NCBI GenBank assembly: GCA_027492205.1
Contig: JAOZFN010000016.1
Coordinates: forward strand, 1 to 64,000
Origin: Thermoproteota archaeon
GTDB taxonomy: Archaea; Korarchaeota; Korarchaeia; Korarchaeales; Korarchaeaceae
Direction: 5' to 3'
DNA: 64,000 bases
A program made the position numbers and the translations under genes. Below, piece by piece: positions 789 through 21,497 of the stretch (position 1 is the stretch's first letter; each line of letters begins with the position of its first letter). A model generated the notes under the pieces. It did not search any database and was not told the DNA's origin. It saw nothing but the letters and a program-made list of their open reading frames with translations.

Positions 789-1547
789 ATGACAGGCAAG
801 ACCCTACGTATGGCTAGGATCTTCCGCGAAGGTAGGGCGGTCGTCATAGCTGCAGATCACGGAGTGGCGTTCGGCCCGATGAGGGGGATAGAGGACCTGG
901 GGAGGGTCGTCGCGGCCTCGGCCGTCGGAGGAGCTGACGCCGTCATGGTGAATCTCGGGGCCGTCAAGCACGTGAGTGGGAAGGCCGCAGGAAGGCTAGC
1001 TGTAATTGCTAGCCTCCCACTAAGGAAGAAGGTTAACTATGAGACCTTGGTCGAGACGGCAGTCAGGGCCGGTGTGGACGCCGTCAAGCTGATGGTCTTC
1101 ACCAACTGTCCTGAGGAGGACCTGTACGTGGACGCGCTTGTAGATGTGGCCAACGCATGCGAGGAGTGGGGCATGCCTCTGATGGCCGAGATGTACCCGC
1201 GAGAGAAGAACTTGGATCCGGAGGTTGTGGCTAGGGCCGCCAGGATAGCCTTTGAGGTAGGCGCCGACATCGTGAAGACCTTCTATACCGGCAGCCCGGA
1301 GACCTTCAGGGCTGTTGTTGAGTCCTGCCCCCTACCAATACTAATCCTGGGCGGGCCCAAGGTTGAGAGCGATGAACAGATGCTGAATATGGTGATGGAC
1401 GCCCTCGATGCGGGCGCCGCCGGAATAGCCTTTGGGAGAAATGTTTGGCAAAGGGATAGGCCTGAAGTTGTGATTAGAGCCCTTAGTGCGGTAGTTCACG
1501 ATAAATTGGGGGTTAAAGACGCCCTAGAACTCCTAAAGGGTCGCTAG
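789..1547 (+). CDS. Class I aldolase, DhnA/LsrF/ADH-synthase family
   Basis: AADHG, GADIVKTFY (Schiff-base Lys), LGGPK and FGRNVWQ motifs. Confidence 0.88.
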   Translation: MTGKTLRMARIFREGRAVVIAADHGVAFGPMRGIEDLGRVVAASAVGGADAVMVNLGAVKHVSGKAAGRLAVIASLPLRKKVNYETLVETAVRAGVDAVKLMVFTNCPEEDLYVDALVDVANACEEWGMPLMAEMYPREKNLDPEVVARAARIAFEVGADIVKTFYTGSPETFRAVVESCPLPILILGGPKVESDEQMLNMVMDALDAGAAGIAFGRNVWQRDRPEVVIRALSAVVHDKLGVKDALELLKGR

Positions 1548-1601
1548 GCACCTTGAGACTCACGGTTAATACTATGCGTGCTAGGGGCCCGAGGGTAGCC
1601 C

Positions 1602-2705
1602 ATGGAACTCGGCGTCGAGGTTGCTGGGCTCAGGCTTCGTAATCCTGTCATAATAGCCTCATGCCCCCTTACAGCCGATCTCCGAACCATCGAGCGAGTG
1701 GCCCAACAAGGTCCTGGCGCGGTGGTAACCAAGACGATAGCCACCCGGCCAGCGAGGCCCCCCAGGCCCAACATGTACAGACTCTCCGGCCTCGGCCTAC
1801 TCAACTGCGAAGACTGGTCGGAGAGATCTCTGAGCTACTGGGTAGAAGAGGGGATACCTGGAGCTAAGAAGATGGGCCTGAAGGTCATTGCAAGCATCGT
1901 CAGCCTCTCCGGATCGGCAGATGAGGTTGGAGAGCTAGCGGAAGCCGTCACGGGGGCCGGCGCAGACGCCATCGAAGTAACGTGTCTCTACGACCCTAGG
2001 GATCTCCCAGATCAGGTGAAGGAAGCGAAGTCTCGATCCGGCCTACCCACCTTCGCGAAGATCTCCATTCCAGTGCTCATGGATGAGTACGTCACGGAGA
2101 TAGCCTCTCGACTAATGCGGGCTGGAGCAGACGCAGTGGTGATAAGTGATACATACGGGCCTGCTCTCCACGTTGATGTCGCAACGGGAGAGCCAGTGTT
2201 AGGAAAGGCAAACGGATCCGGTCGACTCTCGGGCCCGGCAATCAAGCCGTTCACCATGTATTTCACGGCCCTAGTGACTCGAAGGGTGGGGGTTCCCGTC
2301 GTTGCCTGTGGCGGGATTTCGAACGCCAAGGATGTGGTAGAGGCCCTGCTGGTAGGTGCGTGGGCCGTAGAGATATGCACAGCCCCCCTTCTCAGGGGAG
2401 TAGACGTGATAGGGAAGATCATCAGGGAACTCGACTCGTTCTTGGAGTCCAACGGCATTCGTAGCGTGAGCGAGATCAGGGGCGCCGCCCTAGAGAGGAT
2501 AAAGCGGAGGGAGGAGATCGGTCCCCTGAGATATGGCCCTCCCCGTGTGGACGGCGAGAGGTGCACTGGATGCGGGCTCTGCGAGAAAGTATGTCCGAGA
2601 GGAGCCATAACGATAGTCAACGGTAAGGCGGTCGTTGACGTTACTCATTGTGCCGCATGCGGGCTATGCGTCTCGACATGTCCAGTTAGGGCGCTGGGGT
2701 GGTGA
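1602..2705 (+). CDS. Dihydroorotate/dihydropyrimidine dehydrogenase (PreA-like) FMN barrel fused to a 2x[4Fe-4S] ferredoxin domain
   Basis: LRNPVIIAS, GAVVTKT, LSGPAIKP and ACGGI motifs; C-terminal CTGCGLCEKVCP and CAACGLCVSTCP. Confidence 0.85.
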   Translation: MELGVEVAGLRLRNPVIIASCPLTADLRTIERVAQQGPGAVVTKTIATRPARPPRPNMYRLSGLGLLNCEDWSERSLSYWVEEGIPGAKKMGLKVIASIVSLSGSADEVGELAEAVTGAGADAIEVTCLYDPRDLPDQVKEAKSRSGLPTFAKISIPVLMDEYVTEIASRLMRAGADAVVISDTYGPALHVDVATGEPVLGKANGSGRLSGPAIKPFTMYFTALVTRRVGVPVVACGGISNAKDVVEALLVGAWAVEICTAPLLRGVDVIGKIIRELDSFLESNGIRSVSEIRGAALERIKRREEIGPLRYGPPRVDGERCTGCGLCEKVCPRGAITIVNGKAVVDVTHCAACGLCVSTCPVRALGW

Positions 2706-2708
2706 CCT

Positions 2709-4595
2709 ATGTACGGGTACACTGGCAAGATCCTCTGGGTTGACCTCACGAGGGGGAAGGCAGAGGGGAAGGACCTCAATCCTGGCCTGGCCAGGAACTA
2801 CCTTGGCGGAATGGGTCTGTGCATGAGGCTCCTCTACGACCTGACCGACGTAGACACCGATCCGCTAGGACCTGAGAATGTCCTTATATTTGCGGCCGGC
2901 CCGGTCACGGGGACGAGCTGGCCGGGCAGCGGAAGGCTTCAGGTGGCCGCCAAATCTCCCCTCACTGGCCTGGCTGGCTACAGCAACTCCGGAGGGCACT
3001 TTTCCCCGCACATAAAGTACGCCGGCTTCGACGCCATAGTAGTCGTGGGGAGGTCCGAGAAGCCCGTCTACCTCTTTGTAGAGGACGGTAGAGCTGAGAT
3101 TAGGGATGCCTCCGACCTATGGGGGCTCGATACTTGGGAGACCGAGGACGTCCTGAGGGAGAGACATGGGGAAGATGTCAGAGTGGCCGCGATCGGCCAG
3201 GCGGGGGAGAACCTCGTCAAGTTTGCCGCAATTGTCACCGGCAAGGGACGCGTCGCCGCCAGGGCTGGTATCGGGGCCGTGATGGGCTCCAAGAAGCTCA
3301 AAGCCGTGGCGCTGCGTGGAGAGGGCGGAGTCAAGGTTGCCGACCCTCGGGGATTCGAGGAGATGCTCGAGGAGGCCATGAGGAAGATAGATGGAAGCCC
3401 CTTCTCCGAGACCTACAGGGATCTTGGGACCCCCCTGCTGGTGCTGCCCATGAACGTCATAGGGAGGTTCCCGACGAAGAACCACTACATGGGATCCTTC
3501 GAGCGGGCCGAGGAGATAAGCGGTGAGAAGATAGTCTGGGGGTACAGGGTAGCAAAGAGGGCCTGCTTCTCCTGCAGGTTCCACTGCAAGAACATCCTCA
3601 AGCTGGGCGACACGATCGGAGATCACCCCGAGTACGAGACCATATGCTCCTTCGGGTCGAACATCCTGATAGACGACCCCGAGTTCATCATCAGGATGAA
3701 CTGGCTCTCAAACAGGCTCGGGATGGACACGATCTCCCTAGGCGGAACCATCGCCTGGGCCATGGAGTGCTACGAGAGGGGCCTGCTGACGAGGGAGGAC
3801 ACCGGGGGGCTGGAGTTGAAGTGGGGGGACAGGGACCTCGTGGAGAGGCTCGTGCGCATGACAGCGTTCAGGGAGGGGTTCGGCGACGTGCTGGCGGAGG
3901 GCGTCCGCAGAGCGTCTCAGATCATTGGAAGAGGCACCGAGAGGTACGCGATGCACGTCAAGGGGCTGGAGATACCGGCGCAGGACGGGAGGGCCCAGAA
4001 GAGCATGGGCCTCGCCCACGCCACGGCCGCCAGGGGGGCCGATCACCTGACGCACAGCACGTTCTTGGACGAGGTCGGCTTCGAGGAGGCCATCCGGGAG
4101 AGGTACGGAGAGCAGTACCTGCCCGAGATGGCCGACAGGTTCAGCCCGAAGTACAAGGGGATAATGGCGAAGGACTGCGAGGATCTGACCGCCGCCGTTA
4201 GCAGCATGGTCATCTGCGTTACGGCTGGTTGGCTCTTCCCGCCGCTGTTCTACTGGGAGGATCTGGCGAGGCTCTACACTGTAGTCACAGGCATAGAAGT
4301 CTCGGTGTCCGAGATGAAGAGAACAGCGGAGAGAATAGTGAACATCAGGAGGGCCTACCTGATCAAGCATGGGGTGACGAGAGCCAGCGACTCCCTACCT
4401 GAGAGGTTCACCAAGGAGCCAGCCCCCGCCGGAGGGTGTAAGGGACAGATCGTCGAGCTGGATCAGATGCTGGACGAGTACTATGAGGCGAGAGGCTGGA
4501 ATGTGGAGACCGGTCTGATACCACGAGGGAAGCTTATCGAGCTGGGGCTCGAGGACGTAGCCGACGACCTGGCAAGGTTAGGCAGGCTGCCGTAG
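2709..4595 (+). CDS. Aldehyde:ferredoxin oxidoreductase family (W/Mo-pterin) protein
   Basis: KSPLTG, GAVMGSKKLKAV, CFSCRFHC, EYET, GMDTIS, MHVKGLE and RGADH motifs. Confidence 0.95.
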   Translation: MYGYTGKILWVDLTRGKAEGKDLNPGLARNYLGGMGLCMRLLYDLTDVDTDPLGPENVLIFAAGPVTGTSWPGSGRLQVAAKSPLTGLAGYSNSGGHFSPHIKYAGFDAIVVVGRSEKPVYLFVEDGRAEIRDASDLWGLDTWETEDVLRERHGEDVRVAAIGQAGENLVKFAAIVTGKGRVAARAGIGAVMGSKKLKAVALRGEGGVKVADPRGFEEMLEEAMRKIDGSPFSETYRDLGTPLLVLPMNVIGRFPTKNHYMGSFERAEEISGEKIVWGYRVAKRACFSCRFHCKNILKLGDTIGDHPEYETICSFGSNILIDDPEFIIRMNWLSNRLGMDTISLGGTIAWAMECYERGLLTREDTGGLELKWGDRDLVERLVRMTAFREGFGDVLAEGVRRASQIIGRGTERYAMHVKGLEIPAQDGRAQKSMGLAHATAARGADHLTHSTFLDEVGFEEAIRERYGEQYLPEMADRFSPKYKGIMAKDCEDLTAAVSSMVICVTAGWLFPPLFYWEDLARLYTVVTGIEVSVSEMKRTAERIVNIRRAYLIKHGVTRASDSLPERFTKEPAPAGGCKGQIVELDQMLDEYYEARGWNVETGLIPRGKLIELGLEDVADDLARLGRLP

Positions 4596-4611
4596 TGGAG
4601 GTTGGTGTGGA

Positions 4612-5067
4612 ATGGTCCTATCAGTTATCCCAGAACCTTCTAGGTGTGTGTTCTGCTTTGAGTGCACGCTGGCCTGCTCATCCAGCCTTGAGGGGGAGTT
4701 TTCGCCAGCGAAGGCAAGGATAAGGGTTCTTGAGTCCAGGGAGGGGCACGGCCTGCCTATCGTGTGCGTGCAGTGCCCGGAGCACCCTTGCGTGGACGCC
4801 TGCCCGACCGGCGCCCTGCAGGTCGAAGTCGGTATAGTCAAAGTAGACGAGGGATCTTGCATTGCCTGCGGCGCCTGCACCTCTGCCTGTCCCATCGGAG
4901 CCGTGAGGGTGATCGGCGGCAGAGCGGTGAAGTGTCAGGTATGCTCTGAAGAACCCCCCTGCGTGAAGATCTGTCCTACGGGGGCGCTAAAGGTAGTGGA
5001 CGCCCCTGACGAGGAGAGGGAGAAGGCTCTGGGACTGCTGGTTGAGCTGACTGGAGGAGGTGGCTAG
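4612..5067 (+). CDS. 4Fe-4S multicluster electron-transfer subunit (AorA/DmsB-like)
   Basis: Four Cys clusters (CVFCFECTLAC, CVQCPEHPCVDACP, CIACGACTSACP, CQVC...CVKICP); lies directly after the AOR gene. Confidence 0.9.
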   Translation: MVLSVIPEPSRCVFCFECTLACSSSLEGEFSPAKARIRVLESREGHGLPIVCVQCPEHPCVDACPTGALQVEVGIVKVDEGSCIACGACTSACPIGAVRVIGGRAVKCQVCSEEPPCVKICPTGALKVVDAPDEEREKALGLLVELTGGGG

Positions 5068-5429
5068 GCTGCTCCCAGTGACCGAGTGCTCTGTCGAGGA
5101 TCTGTGGAAGTACCTTCAAGAAGACACCGCGCCGACCGTCATTCAGCCATTAAGGTCTACGGAGCCGCGCGGCCCCTTCCCATAGGTATCGACACGATCT
5201 TTGCGTCGGCCGTGGCCAGGGGGGTCGCCTATCCATGGCCCTCTCCAGAGCACGTTGGCCTTGGAGTCGTTTGGATCCCCGATCAGTCAACGGGACCAAG
5301 TTGGTCCTCCTCGGATATAGGATATACTTAAGGCGGTCGCAAAATCAGGTGAGGCGCAGGCGAGGGGCTGAGGTGGTGATCGCGGAACTCTGGCAGCTCG
5401 TCAGGGGTGCGTGGACAGGCGTGACTTAA
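5060..5429 (+). pseudogene. Decayed creatininase-family gene
   Basis: GGAGG then GTG at 5060. Segments in three frames (VIQPLRSTEPRGP / LPIGIDTIFASAVARGVA...SPEH / KLVLL...QVRRRRGAEVVIAELW) align with the intact paralog at 17517-18308 (IVPIGSTEQHGPHLPFGTDAIIAESVS...SAEH...KIVLL...QLRREIDALVVVVDTW). Confidence 0.7.
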
Positions 5430-5440
5430 GGTGGTGAGGC

Positions 5441-6631
5441 GTGAGGTCGGGGAGTCCCGAGGTTGATGTAGAGTATGCTCTCAGGCTGACCAAGGAGCTT
5501 GTTAGAATACCCAGTGTAACGGGCGAAGAAGGGGAGATAGCGAAGTTCCTGGCAGAGGAACTCAGCGGCTTGGGGCTCAAAGTCGAGCTAAGGAGGATTC
5601 AAAGCGACAGGTTCAACGTGATTGGCGTGCTGAAGGGAGAGGAGGAAGGCATAGCGCTGGCGTTCCACGGCCACACAGACACGGTCCCACCTTTCGGCAT
5701 GGAGAACCCCTTCTCGGCCAGGGAAGATGAGGAGTACATTTACGGTAGGGGATCCTGCGATCAGAAGGCAGGCCTGGCAGCCTCAATAGCTGCTCTAAAA
5801 GCCATCGTGGACTCTGAAGTTGAGCTCAGAAAGGGGCTTGCCTTCCTGGGAGTCGTTGACGAGGAGAGGGAGCACAGGGGCAGCTACGCTCTGGTGGAGG
5901 ACGGTTTCAAGGCCGACGCGGCGATCTGCACCGAGCCGACCGGGCTGGAGATCGCGGTGGGCTGCAAAGGTACTCTCCCCCTGAAGATCACCACATTTGG
6001 AAAGGCTGCGCACGGCTCCGCCCCCTGGAGAGGGGTCAACGCGGTCTACAAGATGGCCAAGGTGCTCCTAGCGCTAGAGGAGTTGAAGCCCAGAAGTGTG
6101 ACCGTTCCCGGCGTCGGAGAGGTTAGGGGCTCCATCAACGTGGGTCTAATACGGGGAGGAGAGGCCTACAACGTTGTACCAGACTCCTGCTCGATCTGGA
6201 TAGATAGGAGGCTCGTTCCAGGAGAAACCCAGGAAGATGCCCTTAGGGAGATCAGGGAGATCCTAGATGAGCTCGGTAGGTTGGACCCCAACTTCAGAGC
6301 TGAGCTGAGCGTGGACAGGCCGGATTGGGAGTGGGAGCCCATCAAGAAGAGAGGGCTGAAGCCGTGCCTCGTGAATCCAGAAGAGGACGTAGTCAAGTGG
6401 GTCAGAGAGGCTCACGAGAGCGTGGCTGGGGATCGCGGCAAGCTGAAGTTCTCCAGCGGGTACTTTGAGATGGACTTCCTCGTCAACGACCTAGGAATAC
6501 CGACCGCGGCGTATGGTCCGGGAGATCCCGAGCTGGCGCACACGCCCGAAGAGCGCGTCTCAAAGCGTCAGATAGTGATAGCGTCGAGGGTCTACGCTGC
6601 CGTCGCGATGTCTGCGGCACGGACCGCATGA
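5441..6631 (+). CDS. M20 family metallo-amidohydrolase (ArgE/DapE-like)
   Basis: HGHTDTV, GRGSCDQKAG, DEE, TEP, GKAAHGS and AHTPEE motifs. Confidence 0.92.
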   Translation: MRSGSPEVDVEYALRLTKELVRIPSVTGEEGEIAKFLAEELSGLGLKVELRRIQSDRFNVIGVLKGEEEGIALAFHGHTDTVPPFGMENPFSAREDEEYIYGRGSCDQKAGLAASIAALKAIVDSEVELRKGLAFLGVVDEEREHRGSYALVEDGFKADAAICTEPTGLEIAVGCKGTLPLKITTFGKAAHGSAPWRGVNAVYKMAKVLLALEELKPRSVTVPGVGEVRGSINVGLIRGGEAYNVVPDSCSIWIDRRLVPGETQEDALREIREILDELGRLDPNFRAELSVDRPDWEWEPIKKRGLKPCLVNPEEDVVKWVREAHESVAGDRGKLKFSSGYFEMDFLVNDLGIPTAAYGPGDPELAHTPEERVSKRQIVIASRVYAAVAMSAARTA

Positions 6632-6677
6632 GGAAATTGAGCGTCTTTCCTGTAAGCTCGAGCGTGTCTCTTTTTCC

Positions 6678-8051
6678 CTAAAACTCAATCTCTTTGGCTC
6701 TTTCGACGAGGCTCATTGCAGACTCGGTGGCCTTCTCGACGATCAGACGCTCGTCGACCGTGGTGACCCTCCGGTCCTGTACCACCACTCTGCCGTCTAC
6801 CACAACTGTAGAGACGTCGTTTCCGTTAGCATTGTAGACTAGAGCCGAGACGGGATCGTGAACTGGAGCAATGTGCGGCTTCCTCATGTCGACTACGATG
6901 AGATCGGCCTTCTTCCCCACCTCTATCGTCCCTAAGTCTCTCTCCAGGCCAAGCAACCTGGCGCCGGAAACTGTGGCCATCTCAAGGACCTGCCAGGCGG
7001 TGATCGCCGTTGGGTCGACGTTGCTCACCTTGTGCAGGCAGGCCGCGAACTTGAGGGATGCTATCGTGTCTTGGTTGTTGTTGCTGGCCGGACCATCGGT
7101 ACCCAGCGCCACGTTGACGCCGGATCTCAGCATCTGCGGAATTGGAGCCACTCCCGAGCCTAGGTACATGTTGCTAACGGGGTTGTGGACCACGTGAGTC
7201 CCAGACTCTGCCAGCATCTGGATCTCCCTCTTCGTGACCCAGACCCCGTGCACCACGTGAGTTCGGGGTCCGAGGAGCCTTATGTGGTCAAGGTACTCCA
7301 CGTGCCTCATGCCGACTTCCTTCACGAGGGCCTCGACCTCGGCCTTGGTCTCCGCCGTGTGTATGTGGAGCGGGACTCCGTACCTGTCCGAGAGCTCCTT
7401 AGCCCGGGCCATCGACTCCGCTGAGCAGAACCAGGGCGTCATCGGCGCCACGCCGACCATGAGCCTGCCCTCCTCCCTGCCGTGCCACTCCCTGATGAGC
7501 CTCTCTGACTCCCTGACCACGGTATCGATGTCTTCACGGAAGGGCTCCGGCACCACCCTGTCGTAGTACCCTCTGACGACGCAGCCCCGCACTCCACTCT
7601 GCCTGAGGGCCTCTAGAACCCTGTCGGTGTTGCGCGGGGACGTGTGGATGTAGTGGTTGTCTATCACGGTCGTCGCTCCGCTCTTGAGGTTCTCTATGGC
7701 CCCCAACAGGGCCGCCCAGTACACATCCTCCTCAGTGAGGGCAAGCGAAAGGGGCCATATCACCGACTTGAGCCAGTCTAGCAGCGGGAGGTCGACTCCG
7801 AGACCCCTCATGAGCACTTGGAACATGTGAGTGTGGGCATTCACCAGGCCTGGAAACACGGACATGCCCCGAGCGTCTATCTCTATCTCTCCCCTCTCCC
7901 TCAGCTCGTCGGCCCTCCCAACGTAGGCTATCCTGTCTCCCTCGATCCCGACGGCTCCCTGCTTCAGGATGGGTCTATCTTTGGCTAAGGTCACAACGTA
8001 GTCCGCCCTAATCACCAGGTCCAAGGGACTTCCCCCTCCCCCTTGGGACAA
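6678..8051 (-). CDS. Amidohydrolase, MTA/SAH deaminase / AtzA-TrzA-like (start may be TTG at 8024)
   Basis: PGLVNAHTH, HIHTAET, HGVW, HNPVSN, LGTDG and GKKADL motifs. Confidence 0.92.
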   Translation of the reverse strand: MSQGGGGSPLDLVIRADYVVTLAKDRPILKQGAVGIEGDRIAYVGRADELRERGEIEIDARGMSVFPGLVNAHTHMFQVLMRGLGVDLPLLDWLKSVIWPLSLALTEEDVYWAALLGAIENLKSGATTVIDNHYIHTSPRNTDRVLEALRQSGVRGCVVRGYYDRVVPEPFREDIDTVVRESERLIREWHGREEGRLMVGVAPMTPWFCSAESMARAKELSDRYGVPLHIHTAETKAEVEALVKEVGMRHVEYLDHIRLLGPRTHVVHGVWVTKREIQMLAESGTHVVHNPVSNMYLGSGVAPIPQMLRSGVNVALGTDGPASNNNQDTIASLKFAACLHKVSNVDPTAITAWQVLEMATVSGARLLGLERDLGTIEVGKKADLIVVDMRKPHIAPVHDPVSALVYNANGNDVSTVVVDGRVVVQDRRVTTVDERLIVEKATESAMSLVERAKEIEF

Positions 8052-9418: not shown

Positions 9419-9433
9419 ACAGAGGGTGATGAG

Positions 9434-13910: not shown

Positions 13911-13983
13911 CTACTGACCGCACCCCCTGACGAGCCGAATTAGAGACCAAATGGCGTAAAAAAATGGTGGAGGAGGCTGGGCC

Positions 13984-14790
13984 TCACGCTCCCGCTGCCC
14001 TTGAGTCGTAGTAGAAGGCCCCTATCAACCAGCCGATTATCTGCGCGACGATGCTGGATATAACGAAGCCCGTTGGGCCTATGGCCCACATGAGGGACCC
14101 TACTGCTGCTGCGTATGGGTTGTTGGTGAAGTAGTTGAGGATGCACCACCCGAAGAAATGCACGCCCACGCCGACGAAGGCCATTACGAGGGTCATCACG
14201 GTCTTCACGCCGCCCTTTAGCTTCCGTCCCCTGACGACGCTCCAGAACAGGTAGGAGTTTATGGCCCATATCCCTCCATCCATAAGGGCATAAGCCACAA
14301 CTATGTTAGGAGTGGCGACCCATGGGGCCAGGCCCAAGAGATATCTGAGGATGAATGCCACGGAAGTGCCCAAGAAGGCAACGGCTGGCCCAAAGTAGGC
14401 GGCGGCGAACGCCGTCACCATGGCAACGGTGTCTATGTTGATTGGACCGGGTATCCCAGCAACGGTCGCTACGGCTGCGACGATGGCTGAGGCGGCCAGA
14501 GCATAAGGGGAGAAGACCGAGTACTTTGCCCCTTCGACGTATCTGCCGGGAGGTGCAAGCCACTCCGGCCTCTGACCAAAGAGTTTGATGGCCATGGCGC
14601 CCGGAATCACGTAGATTAGGAACACATACAGGTAGTACAGGCCCTGCCTAGCTGGAGAATTGCTGGGTCCCCATCGCTCGGATGGCGGCCACAGGACTAT
14701 GAAGAGCGCTATCCCTATGATGACCGAGGCAATGGCTATAATCGCCGGAGAGAGGGACTTCTTCTGCATGGTCGATCTGACGTGGCTCAT
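13984..14790 (-). CDS. Putative ECF substrate-specific (S) component of unrecognised family
   Basis: About 8 hydrophobic segments, AAAYFGP motif typical of S components, first gene of the S-A-T operon; GGGGGT RBS before ATG 14790. Confidence 0.72.
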   Translation of the reverse strand: MSHVRSTMQKKSLSPAIIAIASVIIGIALFIVLWPPSERWGPSNSPARQGLYYLYVFLIYVIPGAMAIKLFGQRPEWLAPPGRYVEGAKYSVFSPYALAASAIVAAVATVAGIPGPINIDTVAMVTAFAAAYFGPAVAFLGTSVAFILRYLLGLAPWVATPNIVVAYALMDGGIWAINSYLFWSVVRGRKLKGGVKTVMTLVMAFVGVGVHFFGWCILNYFTNNPYAAAVGSLMWAIGPTGFVISSIVAQIIGWLIGAFYYDSRAAGA

Positions 14791-14865
14791 ACCCCCAAAC
14801 CTATAAAGTTGATCTATCGACGCAAGATGGTCAGGCGAATGACGAAGACTGAGGAGGGTGACCTC

Positions 14866-16383
14866 TTGAGCCAAAACATGCCCCCCAGAAGCGATGGGGA
14901 CAGGAGCATCCTCCTGGGGGTGGACGTGGGAACGACCAATGTCAAAGTGCTGGCATTGACCCCAGACGGGGAGGTCGTAGCTCAGGCGAAGGAGCACCTC
15001 TCATCTCCGATAGTAGATGGGCTTAGAGTCGAGTTCGACGCTGAGGAGTGGTGGACGGCCCTAATAAGGGCCCTGCGGAAGCTTGGTGGCACTGTACTCG
15101 ATCGCGCGGAGGCCATTTGCGTGGGGGGACAGGGCCCCTCCCTCGTGCTAGTCGACCGTCAAGGAAAGCCCGTAAGAAGATCCATCATTTGGATGGACAG
15201 GAGAGCAGTCAGAGAGGCGGAGGAGCTAAGCAAGCTTGTTGGAAAATCCGTGGACCCTTACGTCTTGGAGGCCAAGCTGCTGTGGTTGATGAGGAACGAG
15301 CCGGAAGTTTTGGCTAGGGCCTCCATAGTCCTTAACGCTTATGGCTTCATCAGCTATAGGCTGACGGGCAGGGCCACGCTAGGCCTAATTCAAGACGGCT
15401 ATTACCCATGGTGGAGCACGCCGTACCTCAACCCTGCTCATTTGGAAGCAATGGGGTTCCCCCTCAATCTGCTTCCAGACTTCCTGGAGATCGGAAAGGT
15501 CATCGGAAATGTATCGAATGAGGCGTCGAGGGAGACGGGACTCCCGACCGACTGCCTGGTGGTTCAGGGCCTCACTGACTTCTGGCACGACATAATTGGG
15601 GCGGGAGTAGTTAGGAAGGGTAGGGCCCTAGATCACGGTGGAACATCGCAGGGATTCGACCTTTGCTGGGACTCACCGATTGAAGACCCAGAGGGAAGAG
15701 TTATGACTACCAAACACGTGGTCAAGGGATCTTGGAACATCAGCGGGATCATGTCAACTACGGGGGCCATCTTAAGGTGGTTCAGAGACAACTTGGGTGC
15801 CGAGGAGGTTGAGAGGGCGCGTCAGCTGGGGCGGGACCCCTATGATCTACTTTGCGAGTTAGCTTCTGAGGCGCCGCCGGGATCCAATGGCCTCATTGTT
15901 CTCCCATATTTCGCCGGGGAGAGAAGCCCCGTGTGGGACCCCATGGCCAGAGGGGTAATATTCGGCATAACACTCAACCACAGGAAGAGTCATCTCACGA
16001 GGGCGATATTAGAGGCCACCGCCTACGGTTTGTGTCACATCAAAGAAATAATTGAGGAAATCGGAGGTAGAGTGCAGGAACTGAGGAGCGTTGGCGGCCA
16101 GTCCAAAAGCGACCTGTGGTGCCAGATAAAAGCGGATGTCCTCAACGTACCAGTTCTCAGGCTTGCCGTCGAAGCCACGGAGCCGCTCGGCGCGGCCATC
16201 ACGGCCGGTGTTGGTTCTGGCCACTTCCGCAATCTGGAGGAAGCTTCCGATCAGGTGGTAAAAATTGCTAAAACATTCCACCCAGATGAGGAGCATCATC
16301 GCGCATACAGAGGTTATTACGAAGTGTACAAGAGGCTATATCCCGCCTTGAAGGATCTCTTCAGAGCGCCATATTACGCCTAA
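14866..16383 (+). CDS. FGGY-family carbohydrate kinase (xylulokinase-like)
   Basis: GVDVGTTNVK, IIWMDRRA, GGTS, LPYFAGERSP, RAILEA and VGGQSKS motifs; RBS GAGGAGGGTGA before TTG 14866. Confidence 0.92.
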   Translation: MSQNMPPRSDGDRSILLGVDVGTTNVKVLALTPDGEVVAQAKEHLSSPIVDGLRVEFDAEEWWTALIRALRKLGGTVLDRAEAICVGGQGPSLVLVDRQGKPVRRSIIWMDRRAVREAEELSKLVGKSVDPYVLEAKLLWLMRNEPEVLARASIVLNAYGFISYRLTGRATLGLIQDGYYPWWSTPYLNPAHLEAMGFPLNLLPDFLEIGKVIGNVSNEASRETGLPTDCLVVQGLTDFWHDIIGAGVVRKGRALDHGGTSQGFDLCWDSPIEDPEGRVMTTKHVVKGSWNISGIMSTTGAILRWFRDNLGAEEVERARQLGRDPYDLLCELASEAPPGSNGLIVLPYFAGERSPVWDPMARGVIFGITLNHRKSHLTRAILEATAYGLCHIKEIIEEIGGRVQELRSVGGQSKSDLWCQIKADVLNVPVLRLAVEATEPLGAAITAGVGSGHFRNLEEASDQVVKIAKTFHPDEEHHRAYRGYYEVYKRLYPALKDLFRAPYYA

Positions 16384-16484
16384 CGTCGTCCTTCAGAGCT
16401 GTCAGGCAGTGAGGCTGTGAAGTACGTGGGGAGAAAGGGAGAAAAGGGTATTAAGAGGATTCCCTAAATGGCTGAGGGGATCTG

Positions 16485-17504
16485 ATGAAAGCAAAGGCTG
16501 CCGTCCTGCACGCTCCCGGAGATCTGAGAGTTGAAGAGGTAGAACTGTCTGAGCTGGGCGAGAAGGACGTGCTAATTAGGGTAGAAGCCTGTGGGGTCTG
16601 TCCCTTTGACATAAGGCTCTATCTAGGGCTCTCCAAGCTCCCACTACCTAAGGTGCTCGGTCACGAGTTGGCTGGTGTCGTCGTGGAGGTTGGAGAGAAG
16701 GTCTCGAGAGTTCGTCCGGGGGACCGCGTTGTCGCAGATCCCATGGTTAGGGACCTAACCTGCCCCTTCTGCAGGAGGGGAGAGGAGAACCTCTGTATGA
16801 ATGCAAAGTGGCCCGTGGTGGGCTTCACTGAGTACACAGTGGCTCCCGAGGAGAACGTCTACAAGATCAGCAGAGCGTCCTTCTTTGAGGCGGCGCTGGC
16901 AGAGCCCCTGGCTGCCGTGATAAACAGCGTTGAGAGATCCAAGATGCGGCTGGGCGATGACGTGGTCGTCATTGGAGATGGGCCAAACGGTCTCCTCCAC
17001 CTCAAGGTGGCGTACGTAGCCGGCGCCGCAAGGGTGATCGTCACCGGCATGATGGAACACAGGCTTGAGAGAGCGCTGAGATATGGAGCGACGGAAGCGG
17101 TAAACGTGGCCAGAGAAGATCCAGTAAAGGTTGTTAAGGAGGTTTTTGGAGAGCAGGGCGCCGATCGCGTGTTTGTCACCGTGGGAAGCACAGAGGCCCT
17201 GCTTCAGGGGATAAAGATGGTGAGAAAGGGGGGCACGGTGGTTCAGTTCGCCGGAATCTACCCTGAAACCGGCATCCCCATTAGCGCCAGATTCATACAT
17301 TATTCAGAAGCTTTTCTTACCGGGGCAACAAACTCCACCAGAGAGCAATTCAGGCGGGCTGTTAAACTGTTGGACACAAAAAGAGTTGATGTCTCTGATT
17401 ATGTGACTCACAAGTTCCCCTTGGAGAGGGCTGAAGAAGCTTTGCTGACCGCAAAGAGCCTGAAGGGCTTCAAGGTAATGGTTGTACCGACGATGAAGGA
17501 GTAA
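16485..17504 (+). CDS. Zn-dependent MDR dehydrogenase (polyol/sorbitol dehydrogenase-like)
   Basis: CGVCPFD, GHE, structural Zn site D-x2-C-x2-C-x7-C, AEPLA and GDGPNG. Confidence 0.9.
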   Translation: MKAKAAVLHAPGDLRVEEVELSELGEKDVLIRVEACGVCPFDIRLYLGLSKLPLPKVLGHELAGVVVEVGEKVSRVRPGDRVVADPMVRDLTCPFCRRGEENLCMNAKWPVVGFTEYTVAPEENVYKISRASFFEAALAEPLAAVINSVERSKMRLGDDVVVIGDGPNGLLHLKVAYVAGAARVIVTGMMEHRLERALRYGATEAVNVAREDPVKVVKEVFGEQGADRVFVTVGSTEALLQGIKMVRKGGTVVQFAGIYPETGIPISARFIHYSEAFLTGATNSTREQFRRAVKLLDTKRVDVSDYVTHKFPLERAEEALLTAKSLKGFKVMVVPTMKE

Positions 17505-17516
17505 CCGGCTTTAAGA

Positions 17517-18308
17517 CTAGGATTCACCGGCCAAGTTAATCCTCGAGAGTTCTTCCAACATCTCGCAGATAGCGTTAGTCACAAAATCTCGGATGCGGCG
17601 TCCCTTCTCCTCATTTGCTTTTGTAGGATCTCCTATAACTCCGGATCTCGAGATATCTGCTGTACACCACGAAAAGGAGACGTATCTAGGCTTCTCTACT
17701 CGGAAGTACTTATTCTCAGAATCCATCCGAGGGAGTTCTGAGCGAGCTTCAGCCCACTTAACAAGAGACTCGTCCAGCGCCAACATCAAAGAGGTCTCCG
17801 CCTCGCCAGCGTGGACCGCGCCTCCCGTGGGAGACTCCCTAATCTCTGCCAAGACGTCCGACGATATTGACCAAGTGTCTACCACCACAACGAGGGCATC
17901 TATTTCTCTCCTCAGCTGATGGATTATTCCCTTCAGGAGAGACGTGTTTCCTCCGTGGGCATTTAGGAGGACGATCTTCTTTATCCCGTGAGCCGAGAGG
18001 CTGGCGCAAACGTCCTTGATGAGGGAGATCATAGTCTCGAGTCTCAGAGACAGAGTCCCTGGAAAGTCCATGTGCTCTGCCGAGCAGCCGATTCTGATCG
18101 TGGGCACCACCAAGATGTTCAGCTTGTCCTTGAGCCTATCTGCAACCTCTAACGAAACGGACTCTGCTATGATCGCGTCGGTACCGAATGGCAAGTGAGG
18201 ACCGTGCTGCTCGGTGGAGCCTATTGGAACGATAGCTATCACGTTTCCGCTCTCAATCATCCGCCTTACATCCGGCAGATACGCCCTCTCTAGGCGAAGT
18301 GAAGCCAT
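17517..18308 (-). CDS. Creatininase/ArfB/MftE family amidohydrolase
   Basis: PIGSTEQHGPHLPFGTD, SAEHMDFPGT, NAHGGN, HAGEAETS and GVIGDP motifs; start placed at MASLRLE. Confidence 0.92.
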   Translation of the reverse strand: MASLRLERAYLPDVRRMIESGNVIAIVPIGSTEQHGPHLPFGTDAIIAESVSLEVADRLKDKLNILVVPTIRIGCSAEHMDFPGTLSLRLETMISLIKDVCASLSAHGIKKIVLLNAHGGNTSLLKGIIHQLRREIDALVVVVDTWSISSDVLAEIRESPTGGAVHAGEAETSLMLALDESLVKWAEARSELPRMDSENKYFRVEKPRYVSFSWCTADISRSGVIGDPTKANEEKGRRIRDFVTNAICEMLEELSRINLAGES

Positions 18309-18630
18309 TTCACCGTCTACATTCGGAATTTGAATGATAAAAATCATAGTGCCAGATCCCAAGTTAGTCCAACTTATTCTGTATCTTTGTTGTCTCTCGC
18401 ATTTCCCGCCAGAACTCCTTCACCCTATTGTGCGGTCTCCGCCCACCATTAGAATCCCAGAAGCGGTAGGTATAGCCTCAGCTGGTTCAATGCCAGCTAC
18501 CAGTAGACCATTGGGTGCTCTCAAACCCGTGCCCTGCACAGCCCCTCCGTGACTAACATAAAGTGATAGCCCAACCAGTCGTGGTTTGGCGTACCCTGTG
18601 AGCGCGACCGGAGGCGGGTTCCTGAAGATC

Positions 18631-18759
18631 ATGTACAGGGCGATGGTGGATGGGGGAGCCGTCACGGGGGAGTACGCACGGAAGGTTGGATCGGATGGCT
18701 ACGACGAGAACGCTGGAGAGGCTGTTCGAGTCGTCAAGCGGCTGATCGGGAGGGACTAA
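18631..18759 (+). pseudogene. C-terminal remnant of a cobalamin-binding corrinoid protein (MtmC-like)
   Basis: MYRAMVDGGAVTGEYARKVGSDGYDENAGEAVRVVKRLIGRD* matches the B12-binding domain end (VMVGGAPV...A..IGADGY..NA.EAV). In-frame stop at 18559 and no DxHxxG motif. Confidence 0.75.
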
Positions 18760-18777
18760 AGACTGGAGTTCTCCCTG

Positions 18778-20160
18778 TTGGACGTGTTGGACCTGGCGGA
18801 GAGCGGTCCTCGCATGGAGGAGGGGGAATTTGATCTCAGGGTGGCCAAGCTGTCCAAGGAACTCGCTGATGAGTACGATATACGCTACGACCCAGAGCGA
18901 GTCGTGGTCGAGGACGACGGTCTGGCTGACGATGTGTTTGAGGCTGGCCTCAGGCTCGCCTCGGAGATCGGCATTTACTGCTCGAACACCAGTAGAGTCA
19001 TCAGGTTCTCCGAGGATCAGCTCTTAGATGGCCTGCTGAGCGCCCCCAGTTCCATTGCAATCGGCAAGGGAAGAGATGCGCGCGTTCTCTACGCTAGGAG
19101 AGTTGAGGACGTGAGGCGTCCGATAATATTGGGAGGCCAGCCCGGCGCCTCGATTCCTGAGGAGTGGTTCCTGCCCACTGCCCTCTCTTACATGAGGGAG
19201 CCCCTCGTTGACGCCTTGAACCACGGCAGGCTCGATACCGTGGGCGGCAGGAGGGTCAAGGCGCGCAGCCCGCTTGAAGCGATCGCCACTAGGCGAGAGC
19301 TCACTCTGCTCAGGGAGGCCGCCAGACGTGCTGGGAGACCTGGAATCCACCTGCTCGCCGGTGAGAGCAGCGTTACGTGCGTAGGGGCCCTCGCCGTAGC
19401 TTCAGAGAGGTACCTCAGGACCAGCGACGCTCACCTCATAGGAGTGATCTGCGAACTGAAGACAGACTACGACAGGCTGACCAAGGCGGCCTGCTTCGCG
19501 GACTACGGCGCGTTGAGCGTTACCCTCGCGGATCCGCTCATCGGAGGGTTCGCCGGAGGTCCAGAGGGGGCTGCCATCTGCGCAGTCGCGTCCCTCTTGC
19601 TTGGGAGGCTGGCCTACCAGTCTGCATATCACGTGTGCCACCCGAACCACATCAGAGTCGCCGGTACGAGCAACCCCGAGTGCCTCTGGGTCGCCTCCGC
19701 CGTGGGGCAGGCTATGGCCAAGCGAGCCCACACTCCCATCTTGGGGTCCGTCTGGACCGCGTCTGGTGCCGGCACTAAGGATATCTTCTACGAAGTTGCC
19801 GCTGCCACTGTGGCGAACATCGTCTCGGGCTCGCACCCGGCCGGGGTCTCATCTACGAGTGGGACCCTACCAAACGCCAGCGGCCTCGAAGCCAGGTTCA
19901 TGGCGGAGGTAGCGATTGCTGTAGCCAAGAGTGAATTGAGCCGATCCGAGGCCAACGAGATCGTGAGTACCCCGCTGAGGCGATACGTCCCAAGCCTAGG
20001 GGAGCCGAAGCTTGGACGTCCCTTCCCGGAGCTCTATGATCTTCGAACCGTGACTCCGAGGGAGTGGTGGCTCCAGCTATACCAAAAGATGAGGAAGGAG
20101 ATAAAGGAGCTCACGGGGCTCCCTCTGGAACCCATCGACTCTCGTTCGCCTGAGCCCTGA
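18778..20160 (+). CDS. mtmB: Monomethylamine:corrinoid methyltransferase MtmB homolog lacking pyrrolysine
   Basis: GIYCSNTSRVIRFSE, GKGRDA, PIILGGQPG, SPLE, AGRPG, ELKTD, GGFAGGPE, SGLEARFMAEVA and FPELYDLRTVTP all match MtmB; no in-frame TAG. Confidence 0.9.
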   Translation: MDVLDLAESGPRMEEGEFDLRVAKLSKELADEYDIRYDPERVVVEDDGLADDVFEAGLRLASEIGIYCSNTSRVIRFSEDQLLDGLLSAPSSIAIGKGRDARVLYARRVEDVRRPIILGGQPGASIPEEWFLPTALSYMREPLVDALNHGRLDTVGGRRVKARSPLEAIATRRELTLLREAARRAGRPGIHLLAGESSVTCVGALAVASERYLRTSDAHLIGVICELKTDYDRLTKAACFADYGALSVTLADPLIGGFAGGPEGAAICAVASLLLGRLAYQSAYHVCHPNHIRVAGTSNPECLWVASAVGQAMAKRAHTPILGSVWTASGAGTKDIFYEVAAATVANIVSGSHPAGVSSTSGTLPNASGLEARFMAEVAIAVAKSELSRSEANEIVSTPLRRYVPSLGEPKLGRPFPELYDLRTVTPREWWLQLYQKMRKEIKELTGLPLEPIDSRSPEP

Positions 20161-20165
20161 GTTCC

Positions 20166-21497
20166 TCACAGTCCCTTCCACAGTCTCATGGCCTGCTCGC
20201 TAGCCTTCTCGCGAACCTCCTCCTCATCTACCGTTAGGACTCTCCCGCCTCTCACGACCACCTTGCCGTCCACTATGACGTCCCTCACGCGGGATCCGTC
20301 TGCGAATGTCACCAGGTGCGCCAGGACGTTCTCTGGAGTGAGTGGAGTGGGCGGCCTGTAGTCCAGCACCACGATGTCGGCCTTCTTCCCAGGCTCTATG
20401 GAACCTATCTCCCTCTCCATGCCGATGGCCCTGGCGTTGTTGACCGTGGCCATCTCGAACACCACGTCAGCCGGCATCACGGTCGGGTCCTGGAGCCTCC
20501 CCTTGTGGATGAGGAAGGTCGCCCTCATGACCTCGAACTCGTCGGTAACGTAGCCGTCAGTCCCTAGACCGACCGTGAGACCAGCTTCAAGCATCTCGGG
20601 GACCCTCGCTATTCCTCCTCCGACCTCGCAGTTGCTCAGAGGCTCGTGGCTTACCTTAACGTCTCTCCTCCTCATGATCTCTACCTCTTCGGGCCTCGTG
20701 TGTACGCACTGCGCCGCCAAGATGTCGGGACCCAGGAAGCCTATCTCCTCGTAGAGCTGAATGGGGAGCTTCCTGTACTTCACTAGCGCGTGCATGGTCT
20801 CGTAGGCTCCCTCCTCGAGGTGAAGGTGGATCCCGCTGCCCACCTCCGTCGCTATCCTCCTGACCTCCCTCAGGAAGTCTGGCTCGCACGTGAAGGTCGT
20901 GTGAACGCACATCATCCCCCTGATGAGTCCTTCCTGAGCGTTGTGCTTCCTGACGAACTGCTCGTTCTCTTTTACTCCGAGCCAGGCGTTGTCGTCGCTT
21001 ACTCTCTGGGTCGCCTCAAACGACAGGATCGCTCTGAGACCCAGCTTCTCGATCGCCTCTGCTTCTACATCAAGCGCGCCGGGGATTGCGTTTGGAGCCT
21101 CCAGTATGTCGGCCACGCACGTGGTTCCGTTCTTCAGGGCTTCCAGGCCGGACGCTAGGGCCCCCACTCTTATCATCTCCTTGTCCAGCCTGTCCTCGAC
21201 CATGGGCCACCAGAAGTCCTCCAAGAATCCAATGAAGGACTTTGGAGCCTCTTTTATCGGCATTCCCCTCGTGAGGATCCCGTACAGGTGCCTGTGAGAG
21301 TCTATGAGGCCAGGGATCACCACCTTGTCGGTGGCGTCGACCTCGTCATCGAAGCTGAAGGACTCCCTGATCTCACTCGCGGTCCCCACCTTGACGATCC
21401 TGTCTCCCTCGATGTAGATGCCGCCGTCCTCAATCACATTCCTGCCGGGATTCATCGTTACGACCAGCCCGTGAAGCACGGCGAGAGACCTCGGCAA
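20166..21497 (-). CDS. Amidohydrolase (SsnA/MtaD-like deaminase)
   Basis: PGLIDSHRHLY, HLHLEEG, GLGTDG and GKKADI motifs; GGTGA RBS before TTG 21497. Confidence 0.9.
   Translation of the reverse strand: MPRSLAVLHGLVVTMNPGRNVIEDGGIYIEGDRIVKVGTASEIRESFSFDDEVDATDKVVIPGLIDSHRHLYGILTRGMPIKEAPKSFIGFLEDFWWPMVEDRLDKEMIRVGALASGLEALKNGTTCVADILEAPNAIPGALDVEAEAIEKLGLRAILSFEATQRVSDDNAWLGVKENEQFVRKHNAQEGLIRGMMCVHTTFTCEPDFLREVRRIATEVGSGIHLHLEEGAYETMHALVKYRKLPIQLYEEIGFLGPDILAAQCVHTRPEEVEIMRRRDVKVSHEPLSNCEVGGGIARVPEMLEAGLTVGLGTDGYVTDEFEVMRATFLIHKGRLQDPTVMPADVVFEMATVNNARAIGMEREIGSIEPGKKADIVVLDYRPPTPLTPENVLAHLVTFADGSRVRDVIVDGKVVVRGGRVLTVDEEEVREKASEQAMRLWKGL

Follow-up and report, generated by a model that had tools for sequence, protein, structure and literature searches.

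We analysed a window consisting of the first 64 kb of contig C5 of an archaeal metagenome-assembled genome (MAG; 1.94 Mb, 17 contigs, 96% complete), in which a block of catabolic genes, hereafter the island, fills most of the first 22 kb. Genes were called from an open reading frame (ORF) listing together with Pfam and NCBIfam profile scans of the window proteins. At the centre of the island is a ring module: a PreA-like reductase gene directly followed by genes for a tungsten-type aldehyde oxidoreductase (AOR) and a polyferredoxin, and accompanied by several amidohydrolase genes and a second AOR gene. An importer of the energy-coupling factor (ECF) type and a sugar module lie in the second half of the block. 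All 16 genes named in an original prediction, made from the sequence alone, were recovered by Pfam and NCBIfam at essentially the predicted coordinates. The pathway which that prediction drew from them, a single undescribed route for an N-methylated heterocycle-polyol compound, is weighed below against several other explanations.

The ring module and its bacterial relatives

The reductase (1602-2705, plus strand) has 367 residues and combines a flavin mononucleotide (FMN) domain of the DHO_dh type (PF01180, residues 3-281) with two C-terminal [4Fe-4S] motifs (two Fer4 matches, residues 313-365), in which eight cysteines are invariant in alignment A1. It carries no flavin adenine dinucleotide (FAD)/NAD(P)H domain and reaches 153.9 bits with the PreA model (cut-off 335). 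This architecture equals that of PydAc and UacX. On the same strand and only 3 nt downstream lies the first AOR gene (2709-4595; AFOR_N 265.8 and AFOR_C 421.1 bits), followed after 16 nt by the polyferredoxin gene (4612-5067; Fer4 families). The polyferredoxin is a candidate electron-transfer partner; its 16 cysteines are invariant in alignment A2, consistent with four [4Fe-4S] clusters, and it is 31% identical to Escherichia coli YgfS and 33% to the N-terminus of YgfT, both of which belong to the E. coli uric-acid supercluster. A class I aldolase gene (789-1547, plus strand; DeoC/LacD type, archaeal FbaB/ADH-synthase subfamily; PF01791 145.5 bits, NF005556 248.2 against a cut-off of 241) ends 54 nt upstream of the reductase gene and completes an operon-like run of four. 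The second AOR gene is found at 9434-11314 (plus strand). Both AORs match AFOR_N and AFOR_C over their full length and reach 430-441 bits with PDB entries 1AOR and 9MQX (441.5 bits for the second AOR with 1AOR).

Four hydrolases complete the module. An M20 amidase of the DapE/ArgE subfamily (5441-6631, plus strand; PF01546, PF07687) is YgeY-like and a candidate decarbamoylase; it passes TIGR01910 (250.8 bits, cut-off 217.6) and stays under the cut-off of the YgeY model (221.7 against 321). On the minus strand, a TRZ/ATZ-type deaminase of the 5'-deoxyadenosine/methylthioadenosine/8-oxoguanine deaminase group (6678-8051; NF005557, 433 bits against 522) overlaps a cyclic amidohydrolase that resembles HyuA and dihydropyrimidinase (8008-9381; TIGR02033, 309 bits against 393). 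The fourth, a SsnA-like amidohydrolase and putative ring opener (20166-21575, minus strand; NF005540, 341.7 bits against 444), lies apart from the others, and its true start is probably near 21497. In a maximum-likelihood tree of 18 amidohydrolases it belongs to a clade (support 100/100) that is sister (100/99) to E. coli SsnA and a SsnA of this genome encoded on contig C11. The same clade includes genes directly followed by PreA-like genes, one in a cluster with xanthine dehydrogenase (XDH), PALP and Bmp genes (L038) and one in a minimal pair accompanied by a transporter of the major facilitator superfamily (L033). The TRZ/ATZ-type deaminase falls outside the SsnA clade and groups with a deaminase-like paralogue on contig C7. 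One island thus holds a SsnA-like gene and a reductase with the architecture, and the predicted activity, of a ring-dearomatising enzyme.

The original prediction held that no described pathway has this combination. The core logic is already known, as far as the parts of the sources used here go, from the reductive uric-acid pathway (bioRxiv 10.1101/2025.05.19.654654) and from PydAc (PMC7332683). In the passages covered of Li et al. (bioRxiv 10.1101/2025.05.19.654654), the urate route of E. coli runs through XdhD to isoxanthine and then through reductive dearomatisation by YgfK, detectable solely when coupled to SsnA, after which HyuA, YgeW/UacY, YgeY and YgeX act. C. difficile has UacX instead of YgfK, a PydA homologue without the FAD domain and presumed to use reduced ferredoxin. 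The same passages suspect that ring reduction with NAD(P)H is thermodynamically unfavourable and note a putative F420-dependent reductase in uricolytic clusters of Chloroflexota. In the part covered of Liu et al. the same route is named the 2,8-dioxopurine pathway (bioRxiv 10.1101/2025.04.24.650524). PydAc of Clostridium chromiireducens is described, in the corresponding part of its report, as a ferredoxin-dependent dihydropyrimidine dehydrogenase (DPD) without FAD domain (PMC7332683).

With the uric-acid clusters of E. coli (ygeW-ygfT region), C. difficile and C. sporogenes, as the cited passages describe them, the island shares a flavin/Fe-S reductase together with SsnA-, HyuA- and YgeY-type enzymes. 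The PydA-like reductase without FAD domain, presumed to be ferredoxin-dependent, is a further likeness to the C. difficile variant, and the nearby YgfS/YgfT-like polyferredoxin a further likeness to the E. coli cluster. Unlike these clusters, the island belongs to an archaeal host, adds two AORs, an ECF importer, a creatininase-family enzyme and a kinase/dehydrogenase/aldolase module, and its proteins are only 29-34% identical to those of E. coli K-12 (29% for SsnA, 34% for HyuA and 31% for YgeY). It also lacks XdhD/YgfM: no gene with PF02738, the family of XdhD-type molybdenum enzymes, was found in the island, the two copies of the genome being on contig C4. Pfam and NCBIfam scans detected no YgeW/YqeA, UacY or YgeX in the island either. 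When E. coli proteins were used as tblastn queries, YgeW-like and YqeA-like genes were located on contigs C11 and C3, and no homologue of YgeX or YgfK was found in the whole genome. Since XdhD, YgeW/YqeA, UacY and YgeX are absent from the island, we regard the ring module as pathway-like rather than as a member of the pathway. Like PydAc, for which the cited part of the report gives a low-potential donor, the island reductase joins FMN and [4Fe-4S] domains and has no FAD/NAD(P)H domain. Unlike in PydAc, the donor appears hard-wired, with AOR and polyferredoxin genes directly downstream, and the partner hydrolases suggest a substrate other than, or beyond, uracil.

Recurrence of the module, its importer and its sugar branch

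Among 40 genomes of the class searched with the PreA-like protein, 12 carry it. Of the 18 other PreA-like loci found in the class, 15 have an AOR gene adjoining the PreA-like gene, with gaps of 0-16 nt or small overlaps; the three exceptions are a contig ending inside the gene and two loci of genome G038. The adjacency covers 11 of the 12 genomes having the gene. It persists in the island and in C11:111-128 kb, two paralogous lineages that share no more than 41% identity, as well as in a second family (genome G004). The AORs of these clusters form one clade (91/89), comprising the two of the island, three on contig C11, the copies in genomes G039 and G036 and one at the start of contig C9. Five other AOR paralogues of this genome fall outside the clade. 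A third AOR-family gene in the window (60847-62691) is 34-38% identical to the clade and sits on a long branch.

The reductase family counts 179 representatives at E ≤1e-30 among 1.84 billion proteins. The best 150 of these include three fusions with an FrhB/FdhB F420-type domain and two with a PreT-type FAD/NAD(P)H domain. Because the reductase is found fused to both F420-type and FAD/NAD(P)H domains, its electron-input module is interchangeable, and our preferred inference is that AOR and polyferredoxin would together be another such module for this family. The three F420-type fusion proteins (P0313, P0331 and P0342) look F420-dependent. Aldehyde oxidation by AOR takes place at a far lower potential than that of NAD(P)H. 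We take AorAB(C) of Aromatoleum and WOR5 of Pyrococcus to be multi-subunit tungsten AORs with a polyferredoxin subunit; PDB entries 8C0Z and 6X1O are among the structure matches of the island AORs. As in AorAB(C) and WOR5, a small protein with several [4Fe-4S] clusters comes after the AOR catalytic subunit, but the candidate third partner is a DPD-like heterocycle reductase and not a FAD/NAD+ subunit or free ferredoxin. Literature searches found no work linking AOR with dihydropyrimidine dehydrogenase in archaea, and for AOR and purine degradation in archaea returned nothing related, judged by title. As far as gene order can tell, the novelty lies in a conserved operon that encodes PreA-like reductase, AOR and polyferredoxin and that is linked time and again to dedicated ECF importers.

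The closest parallel to the whole island was found in genome G039, which belongs to another genus and has a GC content of 0.43 at this locus. Here, 13 of the 16 genes form one 17-kb cluster, beginning with the PreA-like gene (58% identical to the window), AOR1 (71%), polyferredoxin (54%), hydantoinase (64%), AOR2 (63%) and the SsnA-like gene (70%). A ribokinase-like PfkB kinase comes next, then aldolase (51%), zinc-dependent alcohol dehydrogenase (Zn-ADH, 42%), FGGY kinase (37%) and the creatininase-family gene (40%), and the cluster ends with EcfT (42%), EcfAA' (49%) and the S-type protein (35%). Missing from the cluster are the M20 enzyme, the TRZ deaminase and MtmB. With 13 of 16 genes contiguous in another genus, the co-location is not due to chance, and the conservation of the neighbourhood on which the original prediction depended is in this respect upheld. 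AOR2 abuts the SsnA-like gene both in G039 and in metagenome contig L031.

Other clusters retain less. Genome G036 has the same ring module with two small MazG/dUTPase-like ORFs (E 2.5e-4 to 5e-3, under gathering score) and a fragment of an M19 dipeptidase, after which come a different ECF system, a SsnA-like gene and a PfkB gene. The order in G004 is SsnA-like gene, Fe-S protein, AOR, PreA-like gene, Fe-S protein, AOR and hydantoinase, adjoined by a complete ECF system with an S component above the PF07155 threshold (31.5, threshold 26.7). The arginase-family ureohydrolase gene beside these ECF genes (L062:1017-1982) might provide a ureido- or guanidino-cleaving step that is missing in the island. 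No sugar module was found in the G036 and G004 clusters. The ring module is therefore found next to ECF genes in four settings with different S components (the window, G039, G036/G035 and G004). Sister clusters carry ribokinase-like PfkB kinases. Judged by gene content, the recurrent core is the ring module with its AORs and polyferredoxin and an ECF importer, with kinase, dehydrogenase, aldolase and creatininase-family genes as an apparently optional extension.

A paralogous cluster lies on contig C11 of the same genome (101-128 kb; L004, L005). Its first part encodes a class-III aminotransferase, a cysteine-synthase-like PALP protein, a beta-hydroxyacid dehydrogenase resembling 3-hydroxyisobutyrate dehydrogenase and a Zn-ADH, followed by carbamate kinase (434 bits, cut-off 358), a YgeY-like M20 enzyme and an amino-acid permease. 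A tightly packed series of AOR, hydantoinase/allantoinase-like gene, AOR, Fe-S protein, PreA-like gene, AOR and Fe-S protein comes next, both Fe-S proteins being polyferredoxins, and the cluster ends with an ATP-binding cassette system of the Bmp/PnrA type and a bona fide SsnA (554.8 bits, cut-off 444). The GC content at third codon positions (GC3) of this cluster, 0.77-0.91, is typical of the genome. Just downstream are a gene of the carbon monoxide dehydrogenase (CODH)/prismane family, an FlpD (MvhD)-like gene and an Fe-S flavoprotein gene. Contig C4 (53800-63900; L043) carries two XDH-family molybdenum enzymes, each with a FAD subunit. Their neighbours are an allantoinase-like enzyme scoring above the TIGR03178 cut-off and a protein that resembles aspartate carbamoyltransferase and has some 195 additional residues at its N-terminus. 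Evidently the organism puts much into nucleobase catabolism; beside the C11 and C4 genes, the island has the look of an accessory second system that arrived later.

The importer genes of the island are all on the minus strand. EcfT (11339-12205; PF02361 62.2 bits, cut-off 25) and a protein with fused EcfA and EcfA' ATPases (12171-13910; TIGR04520 410 bits, cut-off 315; TIGR04521 404 bits, cut-off 330) are both above the cut-offs of their models and identify an ECF system. The adjacent membrane protein (13984-14790, 268 residues) has no Pfam match at E ≤0.01. The nearest folds to its AlphaFold2 model (pLDDT 86) are ThiT and RibU (probabilities 1.00 and 0.97, TM score by target 0.56-0.60, at weak E values of 0.04-0.4), and its language-model neighbours are ECF S components at 0.88, under the threshold of 0.9. 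Its homologue in G039 matches PF12822 at E 1e-3, under the gathering score. We detected 17 homologues, all unnamed or labelled hypothetical, with an occurrence in 3 of 43 genomes of the phylum; the nearest relative from a named organism is 69% identical and labelled Candidatus Caldarchaeum sp. Since EcfAA' and EcfT are encoded next door, we accept this protein as a probable S component of a new family. Dedicated, operon-encoded ECF importers are known for biotin and riboflavin. The island system likewise encodes EcfA-A', EcfT and a small S-type membrane protein together; unlike those importers, its S candidate has no Pfam family, is longer (268 against about 180 residues) and stands in a catabolic and not a vitamin-salvage context.

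Downstream of the importer, the sugar module comprises an FGGY kinase resembling xylulokinase (14866-16383, plus strand; FGGY_N, FGGY_C; XylB model 279.6 bits against 380) and a Zn-ADH, a polyol or secondary-alcohol dehydrogenase of the medium-chain type (16485-17504, plus strand; ADH_N, ADH_zinc_N; best models Tdh with 182 and IolM with 165 bits, both far under cut-off). The kinase ORF is open from 14782, and its start at 14866 was deduced from the 505-residue length of the listed protein P0138. A creatininase-family amidohydrolase follows on the minus strand (17517-18362; PF02633 240 bits); all its NCBIfam scores are under cut-off (MftE 144, creatininase 130, IolN 76 and ArfB 43 bits). Its 2074 homologues at E ≤1e-30 are, where named, called creatinine amidohydrolase or creatininase family, and outside close relatives none exceeds 51% identity. 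Zn-ADH and FGGY kinase together follow the usual logic that leads from a pentitol to a pentulose phosphate. The nearest named relatives of the kinase are labelled Bathyarchaeia (53%) and Caldarchaeum (45%), the G039 copy being only 37% identical. A longest contig of 54,887 nt is given for both the S-component homologue P0007 and the FGGY homologue P0161, which hints that they share a contig. The lower GC content of the ECF and sugar half (see below) and its different nearest relatives indicate another history than that of the ring half, so that the island is a mosaic. On these grounds Zn-ADH, FGGY kinase and aldolase are best described as an optional, predicted pentitol/ketose add-on with a separate history. 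Cyclitol cleavage of the IolM/IolN type was considered for Zn-ADH and the creatininase-family enzyme and rejected, with scores far under cut-off (165 against 450 and 76 against 245). Similarly, an autoinducer-2 (LsrK/LsrF) or 5-deoxyribose reading of kinase and aldolase was discarded on scores well under cut-off.

Composition, boundaries and the resident MtmB gene

The less GC-rich character of the block, as originally predicted, is confirmed by sliding GC content and by GC3 relative to the genome. In 2-kb steps, GC content is 0.517-0.614 across 1-22 kb and 0.63-0.70 across 22-47 kb. The lowest values (0.51-0.58) are found in the segment with ECF, kinase, dehydrogenase and creatininase-family genes, compared with 0.58-0.61 in the ring-degradation segment. 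The genome has a median GC3 of 0.82, calculated over 1492 ORFs of 150 residues or more. Island ORFs have values of 0.60-0.81, and 14 of the 15 scored do not exceed the 32nd percentile of the genome. The neighbouring genes g00, g17, g18 and g19 have a GC3 of 0.84-0.94.

The block had also been taken for a single contiguous unit. Comparison by blastn with L001, a close relative (a Thermoproteota archaeon MAG), resolves it instead into two indels with MtmB in between. Flanks are 86-96% identical: window positions 142-481 align with L001 1-339 (92%) and 18732-20258 with L001 770-2298 (86%). The main variable block of 18.25 kb (482-18731) is absent from L001, where 430 nt take its place, and the second indel (20259-21699), that of the SsnA-like gene, corresponds to about 80 nt. 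Because the flanks are syntenic with L001 on both sides, the block is not a chimeric contig end. Island DNA is present in two of four other genomes of the genus (G006 at 87-93% identity and G008 at 73-92%, on several small contigs); a DNA search did not find it in G005 and G007 (96-97% complete), in which the flank sequence alone matched. L001 was not counted as an additional genome, as it may be one of these. Within its 430-nt filler (L001:340-769) is the remnant of an AOR N-terminus that carries a frameshift and is 45-52% identical to the AORs of the island. With such a relic at the empty site, an AOR cluster may once have been present there, which suggests past loss and not simple absence. 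No tRNA gene was found in 1-30 kb, no pair of flanking direct repeats at the block junctions, no integrase or transposase family among the genes covered by the Pfam and NCBIfam scans, and no Rfam family at gathering score within 1-26 kb. Atypical composition and variable presence in close relatives are those of a genomic island, without the usual signatures of mobility (tRNA target, integrase, flanking repeats). Overall, the block is a mosaic, exchangeable catabolic island.

The gene between the two indels encodes a homologue of the methyltransferase MtmB without pyrrolysine (18778-20160, plus strand; PF05369 323 bits). Its 460 codons form one open frame with no in-frame stop, and the PF05369 match spans positions 5-448 of 450; the absence of pyrrolysine had been predicted and is borne out by the uninterrupted frame. 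The gene is kept in L001, the relative without the island, and the family is found in 6 of 43 sampled genomes of the phylum, G039 not being among them. In a further relative, L002, a copy 89% identical is preceded by genes for RACo, a methyltransferase of the URO-D family and a MtrH homologue; tblastn with these L002 proteins gave no match in the present genome. Four matches to the B12-binding domain PF02310 were found in this genome, inside open frames of 516-581 residues, which is not the size expected of corrinoid proteins. MtqB is, in the part covered of its report, a homologue of MtmB without pyrrolysine that demethylates tetramethylammonium and choline, the sole function shown for such homologues (PMC13044021). 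The window protein shares with MtqB the family and the lack of pyrrolysine; here, no cognate corrinoid protein or activase was found in the genome, and no comparative link ties the gene to the island. The N-methylated nature of the proposed substrate rested on this gene and falls with it, since MtmB stays in island-free L001, is missing from G039 and has no detectable partner genes in the genome. MtmB is a bystander outside the unit, with the caveat that a close metagenome contig (L034) keeps it beside a SsnA-like gene. Near the MtmB set of L002 (5241-10993), genes for a deaminase-like amidohydrolase, a PfkB kinase, a Zn-ADH and an FGGY kinase, about 40% identical to those of the island, form a different cassette upstream of the same gene.

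A predicted low-potential route and its rivals

We propose that the island encodes an archaeal low-potential variant of reductive N-heterocycle (nucleobase) degradation, wired to AORs and ferredoxin, with its own ECF importer and an optional sugar branch; we give this reading a probability of roughly 0.5. The importer with its new S component would bring in a nucleobase- or nucleoside-like compound, from which the TRZ/ATZ deaminase may strip an exocyclic amino group. The PydAc/UacX-type reductase (1602-2705), assigned by family and architecture, would then dearomatise the ring of a presumed heterocyclic substrate. The conserved operon structure suggests that its electrons come from the downstream AOR and polyferredoxin, with an aldehyde oxidised at very low potential. 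By homology with the E. coli and C. difficile pathway, the SsnA-like enzyme would open the reduced ring, the HyuA-like enzyme a hydantoin- or dihydropyrimidine-type product, and the YgeY-like M20 enzyme would remove the carbamoyl group. In the weakest step, Zn-ADH, FGGY kinase and class I aldolase might process a sugar or polyol moiety, the aldolase releasing triose phosphate and an aldehyde for the AORs.

Several observations weigh against this proposal. The equivalog cut-offs of SsnA, HyuA, YgeY and PreA are all missed, so the chemistry may differ from that of the bacterial pathway, and the island has no XdhD-type molybdenum enzyme, YgeW/YqeA, UacY or nucleoside-cleaving enzyme, in addition to the genome-wide lack of matches to E. 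coli YgeX and YgfK. Both AORs are closest to ordinary, broad-spectrum aldehyde-oxidising AORs. The roughly 8 kb around two PreA-like genes of G038 contain no AOR gene, no fusion of PreA-like protein and AOR occurs among the best 150 of the 179 representatives, and adjacency counts overstate independence as the related genomes are kin. Finally, low GC3 may stem from low expression instead of foreign origin.

A bolder version of this proposal, tentative and in our estimate well short of an even chance, is that the clade of tungsten AORs, the polyferredoxin and the DPD-like reductase form one machine in which aldehyde oxidation, with its very low potential, powers the dearomatisation of purine- or pyrimidine-type rings, a reaction that is otherwise unfavourable (or in which ring hydroxylation or dehydroxylation is the work of the AORs). 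The reductase family would then have a fourth type of electron input, in addition to free ferredoxin, F420 and NAD(P)H-FAD. Combined with a new family of ECF S components and an optional pentitol/ketose branch supplying the aldehyde, such a machine could allow redox-neutral fermentation of (modified) nucleosides by thermophilic archaea.

Other explanations have to be weighed for the ring module itself. It could be a reductive pyrimidine (Pyd) pathway for uracil, thymine or cytosine, comprising the reductase, the HyuA-like enzyme as dihydropyrimidinase, the M20 enzyme as beta-ureidopropionase and the TRZ/ATZ enzyme as cytosine-type deaminase, with AORs oxidising (methyl)malonate semialdehyde. 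The reductase has the architecture of PydAc, as given in the part of that report used here (PMC7332683), and the top NCBIfam model of the cyclic amidohydrolase is dihydropyrimidinase/D-hydantoinase. The aminotransferase and 3-hydroxyisobutyrate-dehydrogenase-like genes on C11 would also fit a conversion of beta-alanine or beta-aminoisobutyrate to a semialdehyde, a plausible AOR substrate. However, the island itself has no aminotransferase, and such a pathway leaves no role for the SsnA-like enzyme, the best-conserved partner (70% in G039; adjoining PreA-like genes in L033 and L038). The reductase also has Asp at the position of the Asn in the 'NT' motif of dihydroorotate dehydrogenase B, which we take to be the pyrimidine-binding Asn; across the group in alignment A1 this residue is Asp or Asn. 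We consider a plain pyrimidine pathway unlikely. A quite improbable alternative is that the AORs act on the heterocycle, substituting for XdhD/XdhA as tungsten hydroxylases or dehydroxylases, and that the polyferredoxin balances the electron flow among ring reduction, hydroxylation and dehydroxylation. Two or three AORs accompany each ring module, including those of clusters without a sugar module (C11, G009 and G004), the cluster-linked AORs form a clade of their own, and the island has no molybdenum hydroxylase gene. Yet both AORs match canonical aldehyde-oxidising AORs over their full length with about 440 bits, and with two XDH-family enzymes and their FAD subunits on C4 no replacement by AORs is needed. 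To our knowledge, no heterocycle hydroxylase of the AOR family has been described.

The remaining explanations concern the island as a whole. In the original prediction, all 16 genes act on one substrate class, an N-methylated heterocycle-polyol compound that MtmB demethylates. Modules of all three kinds, ring, sugar and ECF, do occur together in G039, the MtmB of L002 is only a few genes away from deaminase-like amidohydrolase, PfkB, Zn-ADH and FGGY genes, and L034 keeps MtmB next to a SsnA-like gene. Against this stand the behaviour of MtmB described above, including its retention in L001 and its absence from G039, the missing RACo, URO-D and MtrH partners with B12-binding-domain matches just in 516-581-residue frames, the demethylation of tetramethylammonium and choline as the function shown for its pyrrolysine-free homologue in the part of the report used here (PMC13044021), and the lack of a sugar module in the G036 and G004 clusters. 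What stands of this claim is a real co-located unit, atypical in composition and variably present. The polyol module is optional and has other nearest relatives, so a compound with both a heterocycle and a polyol is possible but not required, and we regard the complete pathway as very improbable. At the other extreme, unrelated cassettes without a shared substrate may have gathered at a recombination hot spot upstream of MtmB. Among close relatives, three different contents are found upstream of that gene (in L001 the decayed fragment of an AOR and nothing more, in L002 genes for corrinoid methyl transfer together with kinases, and here the island), the halves of the island differ in GC content (0.58-0.61 and 0.51-0.58), and the nearest relatives of the S candidate (69%, Caldarchaeum-labelled) and of the FGGY kinase (53%, Bathyarchaeia-labelled) are not the G039 copies (35-38% and 37%). 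Nevertheless, G039 has these families in one contiguous cluster although its sugar and ECF proteins are of low identity, ring modules are joined to ECF systems in four settings, and the aldolase belongs to an operon-like run with reductase, AOR and polyferredoxin. We thus give a mere gathering of unrelated genes little probability.

The anaerobic reductive purine-ring route was worked out in 2025, in gut bacteria only. Archaea, tungsten and aldehydes are not mentioned in the passages covered of Li et al. (bioRxiv 10.1101/2025.05.19.654654). The island and its C11 paralogue suggest that archaea run related chemistry with different wiring. If the low-potential route is correct, it would give a concrete physiological role to AOR paralogues, many of which exist in archaeal genomes, mostly without an assigned function, add a new electron-donor module for DPD-like reductases and tie an uncharacterised family of ECF substrate-binding proteins to nucleobase or nucleoside scavenging. 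It would also offer a testable handle on the recycling of nucleic-acid debris by archaea of deep sediments and vents. Should the AORs merely be general detoxifiers of aldehydes, what is left is a nucleobase catabolic cluster of an ordinary, if divergent, kind.

On the 3' side of the island we found genes for a SagB-type nitroreductase, an archaeal fructose-1,6-bisphosphate (FBP) aldolase/phosphatase and a form III RuBisCO, the latter two side by side at 22764-25439, directly downstream of the island. In archaea, form III RuBisCO is linked with the salvage of carbon from nucleosides and AMP, so the island may have inserted next to genes of related function. In L001 an additional ORF of 325 residues without Pfam match (3434-4411) lies between nitroreductase and FBP aldolase/phosphatase genes; it is not in the window (an indel of about 1.3 kb). 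The rest of the window holds unrelated genes, among them a minus-strand ORF of 1568 residues (51244-55950) with DUF11, CARDB and DUF7507 repeats that probably encodes a large surface protein.

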